64,000 nt of DNA from Candidatus Bathyarchaeia archaeon (GCA_049972525.1 JBMFKI010000004.1:15879-79878), one strand, 5' to 3'. Counted from the first letter of the stretch, positions 45,807 through 49,374 are shown. Numbers and translations: made by a program. The notes: generated by a model from the letters alone, not told the origin.

Positions 45807-47219
45807 CTACTTCTTTTTCATTAAATATTCATGAATCGCTCTTGCTGCCCTTTTGCCAGCGCCCATGGCACTTATCACAGTCGCTTCGCCTGTTACTATG
45901 TCACCTCCAGCGTAGACCCCTTCAATGTTTGTTTTGCCATTCTCATCCGCCACAATCGTGCCCCACTTTGTAACCGCTAAGCCTTCAGTTGTACGCTGAA
46001 TAATCGGGTTTGGTGTTCGCCCAATCGCAACGATAACGGTGTCCACATCCATCGTGAATTCTGAACCCTTAACTGGAACTGGTCTTCGCCTTCCACTCTC
46101 ATCTGGAGGCCCAAGCTCCATGCATATGCATTCCATCTGTTTAACCCAACCCTTCTCATCGCCAATAAACCTTGTTGGGTTAGCCAAAAACTTGCAGATT
46201 ATTCCCTCTTCCTCAGCGTTTTCAATTTCCTCCTTCCGCGCTGGCATTTCCTCCCTAGAACGGCGGTAGACTATGCAAACTTCCTCGGCGCCTAGGCGAA
46301 GTGCTGAACGAGCAGAGTCCATTGCGACATTTCCGCCGCCTATAACCGCCACATGCTTTCCAATTCTTATCGGCGTGTCATACTCTGGAAAAGCGTAAGA
46401 CTTCATCAGGTTGACCCTAATCAAGAACTCGTTTGCAGAGTAGATTCCACCTAAATCCTCTCCAGGCACGCCTAAAAAGGCTGGCAGACCGGCGCCTGTG
46501 CCTATAAAAACAGCGTCGAAGCCCCTTTCCTTCAGCAGTTCTGGAATTGTATGAATTCTCCCAATAAGGTAGCCCATGCGAAACTCAACACCAAGCTTCT
46601 TAATGTAGTCAACTTCAGCTTGAACTATGCTTTTTGGTAAACGAAACTCTGGAATACCATAAACTAAAACCCCACCTGGAAGATGCAGAGCCTCAAAAAT
46701 TACAACTTCATGACCAAGCTTTGCTAAGTCAGCAGCAGCCGTTAAGCCGGCTGGTCCGGCGCCTATTATTGCAACCCTCTTTCCAGTTGGAGGCGCCCTT
46801 TCTGGAACACTTATGCCTTTTGCTCTTTCCCAGTCTGCAACAAACCTTTCGAGGCGCCCTATGCTAACAGGGTCTCCAACCTTTCCGAGAACACAGAATT
46901 TTTGACATTGCTCCTCTTGAGGGCACACCCTTCCGCATATTGCCGGAAGACTGTTCTTCTCCTTTATTTTCTTCACGGACTCTTCAAATTTTCCTTCCCT
47001 CAAGAGCTTTATAAACGCTGGAATGTCTATTTCAACAGGGCAGCCAGTAACGCATTGCGGCTTTGGACATTGGAGACAGCGGTTTGCTTCCGCTATGGCT
47101 TGCTCCTCCGTGTAACCTAAAGCAACCTCGTTGAAGTTTCGCCTTCGAACTTCTGGCTTCTGCTTAGGCATCGGCACGGCTTCTTTCCGAATTTTGGGTT
47201 TAGGCTTGGCTTCCGCCAC
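45807..47219 (-). CDS. nfnB: NfnB/SudA/GltD-type NADPH-binding FAD iron-sulfur oxidoreductase, large subunit
   Basis: [50 protein letters not shown]. It overlaps the upstream partner gene by 20 nt. Confidence 0.8.
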
Positions 47220-48045
47220 AACCGCAACCTCCTAGCCTCTCCCAAACTAGGGAGCTTAAGCGCTCTTCTGGAAGGAACATCCTCTGTCTCTTTATCAAAC
47301 CGTCAAAGTCAACAGAGTGCCCATCAAATTCAGGTCCATCAACACAAGCGAACTTCATCTTTCCGCCAACTGTTACTCTGCAGACGCCGCACATACCCAT
47401 GCCGTCAACCATTATAGGCATTAAAGTCACAATTGTCGGCACGCCAAAGGGCTTCGTTATCTCACAAACATTCTTCATCATAACAACTGGACCCATAGCA
47501 ATGCAACGGTCAAACCCTTCCTTTTCAAGAAGCCCCCTTAAGAAGCCAAGACCCTTATAGCCTTTCGAGCCATCATCAGTTGCCACATAAAACCTATCGC
47601 TTAATGCTTTCACTTCATCTTCAAAAAACAGCAGCTCCTTTATTCTTGCACCAATGACTGTTGTAACCTTGTTGCCAGCCTCTTTCAGGGCTTTTACTTG
47701 CAAGAGCATCGGGGCAATCATAACTCCGCCGCTGACACATAAAACATTTCCAAAGTTCCTAATTTCTGAAGGATTCCCAAGAGGACCAGTAATGCTGCTT
47801 ATACTGTCGCCTTCCTTTAGAAGACCAAGCTGCTTTGTTGTTTTTCCAACTTCGTTAAAAACGAATGTTATCGTCCCATTATCTCGGTCATAACCAGCTA
47901 TTGTTAATGGAATGCGCTCGCCCTTTTCGCCTAAAATTAGTATTATGAACTGCCCTGGATGCGCCTTCTCAGCTATGTCTGGAGCTTTAACTTCGAAAAG
48001 TTTGATTTTTGGAGCTAACTCCCTTTTTGCAACAATTTCATACAC
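47200..48045 (-). CDS. nfnA: NfnA/SudB-type FAD/[2Fe-2S] subunit (ferredoxin-NADP reductase-like fold)
   Basis: [21 protein letters not shown]...[10 protein letters not shown] and C-terminal CGVCRV...FACVDGPEF. The GTG at 48045 lies 9 nt after GGAGG. The track ORF starts at TTG 48069. Confidence 0.75.
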
Positions 48046-49270
48046 TTTTCTTTGCCTCCGAAGTTTCAATTTTTAAAGCAGGCATCAAAGCTATCTTCTT
48101 GAAAAACTCCTCAAATTTCTTGTTGAATTCTCCAACACAACGAGGTGAAACCGTGAAAAGCTCAAAACGTTCAAGAAGCCCCCTCTTTTTCAGAAAATCT
48201 TTAAGCACATCCACATTTCTCTCGGCTGTTTCCCTTCCCTCTTGAAGTTTGCAGTCCTCAGCCGAGCAGACAACAGCCATTACGCCGTCAAAGCCGCTGT
48301 GCAAAGCTTCAACAACATGAACTGGGTCAAGAGACTTAAAACATGGAATCTCCATGGCTACAGCTCTCTTCTTGAAAAGTAGGCATTCTGGGTCGTCTAG
48401 GCACGAAAAGTCTGACCATTGACAGCAGAAAACGAGGATCGATGGAAAGTTGGCTTCCGCCTTCAATTTTCTGGCAGCTTCGCCATAAAGCCTTATCAAC
48501 CTGCTAATGTTTTCAAACTCGAAACCCTCAACCTGAATTGCCAAATGTGGACAAACGAGTGCGCAGGCGCCGCATCCCATGCACGCTTCTTGAATTATTT
48601 TTGGCGTTGCAAACTCTTCAGCTTCTATCGCGCCGTATGGACATATGAAAACGCATTTGTCGCAGCCGACGCATTTTTCAGTGTCGTAAACAGCTTTATG
48701 CGAGTACTTAATAACCTTCAAAGCGTCTTTACTGAAGCCCAACTGCTCAAGCACGGCCTTGCCAAGCATAAGCCTTCTAGTGTTGATTTTTGTTCCCCTT
48801 TTAAAGCGGCAGAACTCGTCTTCACATTGTATGGAAACAACATATTTTACGCCAGAGTTCAAAGCCTTAAAAATAAATTCTGTCGGCACCCGCCCTGAGC
48901 ACGGTATACGTAGGGGAATATAATCCCTTATTTTCAAGCCTTGGCTTTCAAGTATTTCTTCAATTTTGCATGTTGCTGGCGAGTTGCCGCGGCACATGAG
49001 AACAAGTGTGTCGCTTCCTTTTTTCTCGCGTATGCGGTTAAGATATCCTATCAGATTATCATAACTGTAATAGACAATTTCTATGGCAAGCGAGGGACAA
49101 GCACTGTAGCAGATTCCGCAAACTTGGCACTTCTGAATGTCAATTTCGAAGTTGCCGCTTTCCAAATCCCGCCTTATAGCCTCATAGGGGCAGACGGAAT
49201 AACAAACTGCACATTTACTGCAATAATCCTGATTTATGCGTACAGCGGCTGCACACGCCTCCTCACTCAT
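48038..49270 (-). CDS. Duplicated [2x4Fe-4S ferredoxin + MvhD-like domain] protein
   Basis: Repeat 1: CSKCAVCYSVCP, CQVCGICYSACP, then LVLMCRG...IPCSGRVP...IQCEDEFC. Repeat 2: CVGCDKCVFICP, CMGCGACALVCP, then LVFCCQW...IPCFKSLD...VVCSAEDC. Its stop overlaps the nfnA-like GTG start by 8 nt. The alternative GTG start is at 49285. Confidence 0.7.
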   Translation of the reverse strand: MSEEACAAAVRINQDYCSKCAVCYSVCPYEAIRRDLESGNFEIDIQKCQVCGICYSACPSLAIEIVYYSYDNLIGYLNRIREKKGSDTLVLMCRGNSPATCKIEEILESQGLKIRDYIPLRIPCSGRVPTEFIFKALNSGVKYVVSIQCEDEFCRFKRGTKINTRRLMLGKAVLEQLGFSKDALKVIKYSHKAVYDTEKCVGCDKCVFICPYGAIEAEEFATPKIIQEACMGCGACALVCPHLAIQVEGFEFENISRLIRLYGEAARKLKAEANFPSILVFCCQWSDFSCLDDPECLLFKKRAVAMEIPCFKSLDPVHVVEALHSGFDGVMAVVCSAEDCKLQEGRETAERNVDVLKDFLKKRGLLERFELFTVSPRCVGEFNKKFEEFFKKIALMPALKIETSEAKKSV

Positions 49271-49374
49271 GAAACATTTCTCCACCGTTCTAGTGAAACT
49301 TGCCTTATGATTAATACATAGGCTTAGAAGATTTTTGAGGCATCTCCAATGATATAATAGTTTTGGAGCACAAC

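Follow-up and report, generated by a model that had tools for sequence, protein, structure and literature searches.

A tandem ferredoxin–MvhD-like protein encoded with NfnAB in Bathyarchaeia as a possible iron–sulfur connector to other redox enzymes

In the window analysed here, 64,000 nucleotides from a Candidatus Bathyarchaeia archaeon (GCA_049972525.1, JBMFKI010000004.1:15879-79878), three overlapping genes on the minus strand encoded an iron–sulfur protein of 410 aa (hereafter the wire subunit), NfnA (281 aa) and NfnB (470 aa). NfnAB counts among the four archetypal enzymes of flavin-based bifurcation. A preliminary description of this DNA had read the trio as a protein with two units of a 2×[4Fe–4S] ferredoxin and an MvhD-like domain, followed by nfnA and nfnB, and the open reading frames (ORFs) bore out this architecture. 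It had also extended the wire gene to 49285. An in-frame GTG does open the ORF there (48038–49285), but translation most likely begins with the ATG at 49270 (48038–49270, minus strand), which yields the 410-aa product and was placed because of a conserved ribosome-binding site and the alignment of homologues. This site, GGTGGAG (49280–49286, minus strand), lay 9 nt 5′ of the ATG, with TGGAGA conserved in the spacer alignment. An identical protein was encoded on contig PNIF01000018.1 of GCA_002871255.1, and its homologues carried the name Bathyarchaeia.

Pfam, NCBIfam, alignment, an AlphaFold2 (AF2) model and Foldseek all contributed to the domain assignment of the wire subunit. Fer4 was detected in four stretches and FlpD/MvhD (PF02662) in two, the PF02662 match (E 6.7e-36) scoring 123.5 bits against a curated cut-off of 22.3. 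Ferredoxin domain 1, recognised by Fer4 and invariant Cys, comprised residues ~10–66 (49073–49243, minus strand; Cys 17, 20, 23, 27, 48, 51, 54 and 58) and ferredoxin domain 2 residues ~193–247 (48530–48694, minus strand; Cys 200, 203, 206, 210, 230, 233, 236 and 240). MvhD-like domain 1 (residues ~86–185; 48716–49015, minus strand; Cys 93, 124, 149 and 154) was degenerate, lacked the N-terminal CCxWC-type motif and aligned with MvhD over the core only. MvhD-like domain 2 (residues ~276–399; 48074–48445, minus strand; Cys 282/283, 310, 335 and 340) was more canonical; it retained the N-terminal CC motif and aligned end to end with MvhD (residues 6–134 of 5ODC_D). The two halves of the protein aligned colinearly with each other (26% identity, E 3e-15). 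Across 32 diverse members, with identities as low as 34%, the four [4Fe–4S] motifs kept all 16 Cys invariant, as were four Cys in each MvhD-like half (C93/C124/C149/C154 and C283/C310/C335/C340). The latter lined up with Cys/Sec positions of solved MvhD chains, and we infer that they ligate one [2Fe–2S] cluster per domain. The predicted cofactors are four [4Fe–4S] and two [2Fe–2S] clusters, six in all.

The AF2 model of the wire subunit had a predicted local distance difference test (pLDDT) value of 86.6 and a predicted template modelling score (pTM) of 0.84. Its best folds in the PDB, as found with Foldseek, were MvhD chains, with template modelling (TM) scores of 0.77–0.81 overall (5odc_D, TM 0.78, root-mean-square deviation 2.6 Å; 8rvu_F, TM 0.81; 7bkb_F). 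The MvhD-like nature proposed for these segments was thus upheld by both profile and fold searches. No PDB chain with the full architecture was found with Foldseek or by comparison with PDB sequences. The best NCBIfam match was to the final 200 positions of the HdrA2 model, where the C-terminal ferredoxin domain and the fused MvhD are located. By these alignments, the wire subunit is the HdrA electron-entry path repeated twice in tandem, minus the HdrA flavin core.

The nfnA gene (47200–48045, minus strand) encoded a subunit of the NfnS/PyrK type with a recognisable FAD/NAD(H) fold and the [2Fe–2S] motif DGxGMCGxCR...C. The protein matched 5JCA_S (NfnI-S of P. furiosus) with 294 bits and 4YLF_A (NfnA of T. 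maritima) with 276 bits, scored 386 bits against NF004862 (cut-off 220) and aligned with 5JCA_S through the small-subunit Asp/Cys3 motif region, including ...FACVDGPEF. The nfnB gene (45807–47219, minus strand) encoded an NfnL/GltD-type protein with 2×[4Fe–4S], an FAD site and an NADPH site, which matched 4YLF_B (T. maritima) over its full length with 613 bits and 5JCA_L (NfnI-L of P. furiosus) with 580 bits, and scored 650 bits against TIGR01316 (cut-off 472). GTG 47219 is the correct start of nfnB, since residues shared with NfnB of P. furiosus and T. maritima lie 5′ of the first ATG. The [2Fe–2S] motif and both [4Fe–4S] motifs aligned with those of crystallised NfnAB. By sequence, both proteins are close relatives of crystallised NfnAB and not loose 'Sud-like' relatives. 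The 'sulfide dehydrogenase/polysulfide' reading of Bathyarchaeia sudAB (PMC11631310) was set aside, as the proteins were closest to bona fide Nfn. The C-terminus of NfnA (47200–47230) read W-E-x-x-G-G-C-x-C-G-G-K; its CxC tail, GGCGCGG in this lineage-specific form, was conserved across the main Bathyarchaeia clade, whereas sister lineages and hydrogenase-linked NfnA proteins had GGIKHG/GGVKRG in its place or lacked the tail.

The gene junctions and the translational coupling that the preliminary description had proposed could be read directly. The wire gene and nfnA overlapped by 8 nt, the sequence GTGTATGA at 48045–48038 holding both the GTG start of nfnA and the TGA stop of the wire gene; GGAGG was located 10 nt upstream of the GTG. 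The stop of nfnA (47200) and the GTG start of nfnB (47219) gave an overlap of 20 nt, with GGAGG 9 nt upstream of the nfnB start. A TFB recognition element (BRE)/TATA element, CTCCAAAACTATTATATC (49351–49368, minus strand), directly followed the stop of the upstream trxB-like gene, approximately 90 nt upstream of the wire ATG, and an alignment of 78 trxB-to-wire intergenic spacers yielded the BRE/TATA consensus cTCCAAAAatATTATATT. Directly 3′ of the nfnB stop was a T-rich run, TTTAGTTTT (45797–45806, minus strand), which from its sequence is a likely archaeal terminator, and a TATA-like box was present 5′ of the next gene downstream of nfnB. Because of the conserved BRE/TATA element before the wire gene and the T-run after nfnB, the trio appears to be its own transcription unit, with the genes for thioredoxin reductase (TrxR)-like, Hdr and Mvh proteins as neighbours rather than members.

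A scan of one genome per species recovered 469 relatives of the wire subunit, which was present in 469 species-level genomes and in >1,400 protein clusters. The neighbourhood counts given here use the best 80 of the 469, all from Bathyarchaeia (64–87% identity), with only eligible loci in the denominators. The order trxB-like, wire, nfnA, nfnB was nearly invariant: a TrxR-like gene was found upstream at 74/76 loci, and NfnA and NfnB were found at 73/75 and 63/64 loci, respectively, so that the linkage to NfnAB on which the preliminary description depended is conserved. At 24 loci the wire-to-nfnA junction measured −8 nt, and at another 24 it was between 0 and +4 nt; nfnA and nfnB overlapped in every locus, as measured from the longest-ORF starts. 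A gene-calling artefact or chance adjacency was rejected since the same order and the same overlaps recur across Bathyarchaeia loci. The wire–Nfn trio is a real and widespread feature, for which we infer the mechanism discussed below.

The conserved overlaps also bear on whether the 410-aa protein could be a free polyferredoxin-like carrier or redox sensor, co-expressed with NfnAB and forming no stable complex with it. Small ferredoxin genes 5′ of the wire gene in two related loci (L133 and L135) suggest a soluble carrier context, and canonical NfnAB needs free ferredoxin only. Set against this, the start/stop overlaps were conserved across dozens of species, fusions of NfnB, ferredoxin and MvhD exist, and MvhD is a bound adaptor in every solved complex that was matched. 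A free carrier is therefore the explanation we regard as highly improbable. One of the fusions, P0197 (702 aa), combined an NfnB/GltD-like protein, a ferredoxin and MvhD in a single polypeptide and provides Rosetta-stone support for the link between an Nfn-type flavoprotein and a ferredoxin–MvhD unit. A large group of proteins of 520–560 aa carried ferredoxin–MvhD after an unannotated N-terminus of ~300 aa.

The neighbours of the trio included genes for candidate partners. Upstream, outside the trio promoter, were the gene for a low-molecular-mass TrxR-like protein with a CGIC redox motif and an HRRxxxR NADPH motif (49375–50319, minus strand), the gene for an HdrD/TfrB-like protein (50625–51746, minus strand) and, divergently oriented, the gene for a 793-aa HdrA–MvhD fusion (51819–54200, plus strand). 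Downstream on the same strand, mvhG, mvhA and genes for an 807-aa HdrA–MvhD fusion, HdrC and HdrB followed at 36476–42703 (minus strand). A 936-aa ADP-forming acetyl-CoA synthetase (ACD) with both subunits fused and a C-terminal GNAT domain was encoded between nfnB and mvhG (42833–45643, minus strand); ACD was found at the locus in 16/50 cases. A second Hdr operon (23538–34064, minus strand) encoded a GcvH-like protein (198 aa), an NfnB-like protein with ferredoxin domain (571 aa), an MvhD-like protein (248 aa), HdrA (1010 aa), MvhD (147 aa), HdrC, HdrB, MvhG and MvhA. The NfnB/GltD-like 571-aa protein had a C-terminal 2×[4Fe–4S] domain, and the arrangement fused in P0197 was split over two genes at 30892–33361, in further support of that link. 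Within the window, the operon is an instance in which a ferredoxin–MvhD unit connects an NfnB-type module to Hdr and Mvh. It looks like an unfused counterpart of the 'type III' HdrA–GltD, and the GcvH-like gene brings to mind lipoate-binding proteins known from sHdr systems. The window held three HdrA paralogues, each with its own MvhD: fused in the 807-aa and 793-aa proteins, and flanking the 1010-aa double HdrA, which lay between two MvhD genes.

The preliminary description had proposed an NADPH module that docks onto HdrA in place of a hydrogenase. In a version of this proposal, the wire subunit would plug NfnAB into HdrA, here into the HdrA–MvhD/HdrD-like pair at 50625–54200. The result might be, equally tentatively, an NADPH-dependent and possibly doubly bifurcating heterodisulfide/thiol reductase, analogous to FlxABCD–HdrABC. 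The Hdr adjacency fits: across Bathyarchaeia loci, an HdrD-like neighbour was present at 47/69 and a divergent HdrA–MvhD gene at 44/62 (about 70%), and, among the loci examined beyond Bathyarchaeia, HdrA was found in the same gene run in L094 (HdrA–TrxR–wire–NfnAB, all in one direction) and L133 (wire–NfnAB–Aldedh–HdrA–MvhD). The order NfnB-like plus ferredoxin, MvhD, HdrA, MvhD, HdrCB, MvhGA in the second Hdr operon and the P0197 fusion point the same way, as do published precedents (FlxABCD–HdrABC, HdrA–NfnB/GltD fusions, and BamF, which joins two bifurcating modules) and a termite-gut lineage reported to lack Mvh that keeps the trio beside HdrA/HdrD.

Docking onto HdrA meets several difficulties, however. 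All HdrAs in the window already have their own C-terminal ferredoxin domain and MvhD, fused or adjacent, and their canonical MvhD site is therefore taken; the wire subunit copies the entry path of HdrA and not the exit path of a donor; and the Hdr genes are divergent or separately transcribed. Among the 44 Bathyarchaeia loci with long flanks, 33 had an Hdr neighbour, 19 a hydrogenase or hyp neighbour and two neither, leaving 11 without an Hdr neighbour. Outside the main clade, no HdrA was seen in the same gene run in most wire contexts linked to a hydrogenase, FdhA or 2-oxoacid oxidoreductase (OFOR), nor was any seen beside the wire gene in the MetVF-linked ones. Several diverged lineages put Nfn or MetVF in the usual place of HdrA, beside an Mvh hydrogenase or FdhA, and these two donor types are the ones for which docking to MvhD is known. 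Part of the earlier proposal is thus in keeping with the gene neighbourhoods, while the occupied MvhD sites and the variable partners tell against it as a general rule, and we treat HdrA docking as a tentative special case of a broader explanation.

The diverged lineages, examined as representatives clustered at 50% (about 17 full-length wire clusters), had a variety of partners. L092 encoded wire–NfnA–NfnB–MvhG–MvhA in a tight arrangement (overlaps of 4–8 nt and one 13-nt gap), contig P0129 a tightly packed wire–NfnAB–MvhGA–HycI, and L096 wire–NfnA–MvhG–MvhA without NfnB; the gene orders of L114 and L117 were similar. The L096 operon looks like a sulfhydrogenase-style NAD(P)-linked hydrogenase with the wire subunit in place of the beta subunit. 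In this locus (L096:4721-9303), the NfnA-like protein had 315 aa and an N-terminal CxxC...CxxC zinc-ribbon. In L134, from a Dehalococcoidia metagenome-assembled genome (MAG; 1920-14526), the order was wire, NfnA, an FdhA-like protein (921 aa), NfnA and NfnB, and this run adjoined a NuoE/NuoF/NuoG–GltD (Bfu-type) cluster. L135, from a Cloacimonetes MAG (2604-8344), encoded thiamine pyrophosphate (TPP) subunits of an OFOR, a small ferredoxin, the wire subunit and NfnAB. Six diverged members adjoined MetV/MetF (sometimes fused); this MetVF-linked sister clade (L084–L091) was found beside Wood–Ljungdahl genes (Ftr, CdhCDE, Mtr, DUF3786). L090 combined wire, MetVF and the small and large NiFe subunits and may be an H2-linked methylene-tetrahydromethanopterin (H4MPT)/tetrahydrofolate (THF) reductase. 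L119 had both partner types (wire–NfnAB–MetV). In a phylogenetic tree, all Nfn-linked wire subunits fell into one clade (support 100/99), MetVF-linked ones were placed outside it and hydrogenase-linked ones occurred on both sides.

These operons raise the alternative that the C-terminal MvhD domain docks MvhAG, with Nfn in the usual place of HdrA. H2 would then be coupled to NADP(H) and NAD(H) at the bifurcating FAD of NfnB, either as H2-dependent NADP+ reduction or as NADPH-driven H2 evolution pulled by NAD+ reduction. In L092, L096 and P0129, with L114 and L117 similar, the wire–NfnA(B)–MvhG–MvhA genes were packed with overlaps or gaps of ≤25 nt and without another MvhD, and the wire–MetVF–NiFe order of L090 is of the same kind. 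The MvhA-type hydrogenases of L092 and L096 were 63–69% identical to both MvhA proteins of the window, which are themselves of the Mvh type (5ODC_F, 402 bits). In the window, mvhGA lies 3 kb downstream of the trio on the same strand, and in L036 and L051, with no ACD between, mvhG directly followed nfnB. MvhGA, hypA or hypF occurred within 8 kb downstream at 22/48 Bathyarchaeia loci. On the other hand, structural MvhGA genes were nearby at 8/48 main-clade loci only, both hydrogenases of the window belong to operons with their own HdrA and MvhD, a promoter-like gap, the terminator-like T-run and the ACD gene intervene between nfnB and mvhG, and termite-gut Bathyarchaeia reported to lack Mvh keep the trio. 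Hydrogenase docking, like HdrA docking a special case of the broader explanation, is unlikely on the whole, as is the H2 coupling that would follow from it. In L018, L022 and 13 other Bathyarchaeia loci, mostly without HdrA/HdrD neighbours, hypA with a ParA/NUBPL-type ATPase, or hypF, was located directly 3′ of nfnB.

The explanation we favour, with moderate confidence, is broader than docking to either partner: the trio would be a three-subunit Nfn, with the wire subunit as a modular iron–sulfur connector to a partner that varies by lineage. For this Bathyarchaeon, the best reading is that the partner is Hdr or Mvh, and the local candidates would be the adjacent HdrA–MvhD/HdrD-like pair and, downstream on the same strand, the MvhAG hydrogenase. 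The wire subunit may have arisen by tandem duplication of a unit made of the HdrA C-terminal ferredoxin domain and MvhD, which in Mvh/Fdh–Hdr complexes conducts electrons from the donor enzyme to the HdrA flavin. It would bind NfnAB and act instead of, or in addition to, free ferredoxin as the low-potential partner of the enzyme, with single electrons passing along a series of 2×[4Fe–4S], [2Fe–2S], 2×[4Fe–4S] and [2Fe–2S]. The more canonical C-terminal MvhD domain would dock a second redox module, which depending on the lineage would be an Mvh-type [NiFe] hydrogenase, FdhA, a 2-oxoacid:ferredoxin oxidoreductase or HdrA; in the sister clade, MetVF would take the place of NfnAB. The neighbouring NADPH-type thioredoxin reductase would share the NADPH that NfnB produces or consumes. 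The data show the protein architecture, the cofactor motifs, the limits of the operon, the conserved linkage and the variable partners; a physical complex, its docking site and the direction in which electrons move are proposals.

Three points weigh against this explanation. The docking site on Nfn is ambiguous: L096 lacks NfnB, an indication that NfnA alone may suffice for the wire subunit, which is a poor fit to simple docking at the ferredoxin site of NfnB. Within a single archaeal class, part of the shared gene order may stem from common descent and not from selection. Finally, the neighbouring Hdr and hydrogenase genes form separate transcription units. A bolder extension, which we consider rather doubtful, is that the wire subunit turns Nfn into a plug-in bifurcation module: MvhAG–(ferredoxin–MvhD)2–NfnAB would be a third kind of bifurcating/confurcating hydrogenase, coupling H2 with NADP(H) and NAD(H) at the NfnB FAD, or, in Bathyarchaeia, NfnAB and HdrA would act in series, with two bifurcating flavins in one supercomplex. 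If true, the NfnAB–HdrA series would account for the function of Hdr and Mvh in non-methanogenic archaea.

NfnAB has so far been treated as a self-contained heterodimer that uses free ferredoxin, and a conserved, co-translated wire subunit would mean that hard-wiring to other enzymes is possible for it. HdrA would in that case no longer be the sole user of the MvhD adaptor. The trio also offers a testable approach to the long-standing question of what Hdr and Mvh do in Bathyarchaeia that are not methanogens and in their archaeal relatives (PMC10667645, PMC7886697), and NADPH might be reached by a route linked to H2 or formate. The MetVF-linked sister clade is relevant to the question of which electron donor serves archaeal methylene-H4MPT/THF reductases.

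Further genes of the window were less directly connected with the trio. Between the HdrD-like and TrxR-like genes, a lysine-rich ORF of 72 aa (50407–50625, minus strand) contained a CSVCG motif and had no Pfam match on record; in the related locus L132, a small ORF (46 aa) was called at the same position. Two genes at 17172–20460 (plus strand) encoded proteins of 566 aa and 521 aa; the latter was 40% identical at its C-terminus to the HdrD-like protein of 50625–51746. The pair may be a GlcD/LldD-type dehydrogenase with an HdrD-like subunit. Electron-transferring flavoprotein (EtfAB) and acyl-CoA dehydrogenase genes were also present in the Bathyarchaeia island.

A literature search found no published description of a (ferredoxin–MvhD)2–NfnAB protein or operon, although absence there is not proof. 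Publications on Bathyarchaeia only mention 'sud/nfn' (PMC11631310) or leave the role of Hdr open (PMC10667645, PMC7886697). The Bfu-type NfnABC, the namesake of 'NfnABC/NfnC' in the literature, is unrelated and was rejected as a relative. As the preliminary description had held, characterised NfnAB (NfnSL) is a two-subunit enzyme. NfnAB of T. maritima (4YLF) and NfnI of P. furiosus (5JCA) share with the proteins described here the aligned cofactor motifs and the overlap of the two genes. Unlike these heterodimers, which work with free ferredoxin, the Bathyarchaeia NfnAB is co-inherited with a third, translationally coupled iron–sulfur gene upstream, and its NfnA carries the GGCxCGG tail.

The wire subunit shares with MvhD/VhuD of the MvhAGD–HdrABC and FdhAB–MvhD–HdrABC complexes (5ODC, 7BKB, 8RVU) the PF02662 family, the four Cys positions and the fold (TM 0.77–0.81). 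Canonical MvhD is a single subunit of ~140 aa, or one C-terminal fusion to HdrA, that bridges the donor and HdrA, whereas in the wire subunit two MvhD copies alternate with two 2×[4Fe–4S] domains, and the protein is co-translated with NfnAB and not with MvhAG or HdrA. The two halves of the wire subunit also each aligned with model positions 571–771 of HdrA2-type HdrA–MvhD (HdrA2B2C2 of M. acetivorans; NF040770). Unlike HdrA2, it has no thioredoxin-reductase/FAD core and no N-terminal or inserted ferredoxin domain, and it scored 174 bits against a family cut-off of 1100 bits. The polyferredoxins MvhB/VhuB differ in having about 12 [4Fe–4S] motifs and no MvhD, compared with four [4Fe–4S] motifs and two MvhD domains in the wire subunit, and the match to MvhB (9sw6_G) covered a single ferredoxin stretch only. 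BamF of the class II benzoyl-CoA reductase (bioRxiv 10.64898/2026.04.10.717634) is comparable as an MvhD homologue that links a bifurcating/confurcating input module to an HdrA-like module, with an electron-transferring flavoprotein as a partner. It differs in its single [2Fe–2S] cluster, its extra Rossmann and winged helix-turn-helix (wHTH) domains and its input module, which is HydBC-like and not Nfn.

The idea of an NAD(P)H-linked heterodisulfide reductase is not new, as both FlxABCD–HdrABC and HdrA–NfnB/GltD fusions have been published. FlxABCD–HdrABC of Desulfovibrio is an NADH dehydrogenase/heterodisulfide reductase (Ramos et al. 2015, as cited in PMC4759654 and PMC5296606). It resembles the trio in combining an NAD(P)H flavoprotein, iron–sulfur proteins and an MvhD homologue, and in its association with hdr genes; the Flx components, however, are individual small proteins that share an operon with hdrABC, and they include neither an NfnB-type bifurcating flavoprotein nor a tandem ferredoxin–MvhD protein. 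The hdr neighbours of the trio, by comparison, run divergently or are transcribed separately, and only the three genes lie between the promoter and the terminator. Presumably, FlxA is a homologue of the NfnA of the trio or at least resembles it. HdrA proteins with an inserted NfnB/GltD domain are known as HdrA9–11 in ANME-1 and as 'type III' HdrA in Bathyarchaeota. Like the trio, they bring an NfnB-type NAD(P)H module together with Hdr and Mvh genes. In the fusions, this module is covalently inserted into the ferredoxin domain of HdrA, whereas here a complete NfnAB is encoded with a separate wire subunit in its own transcription unit.

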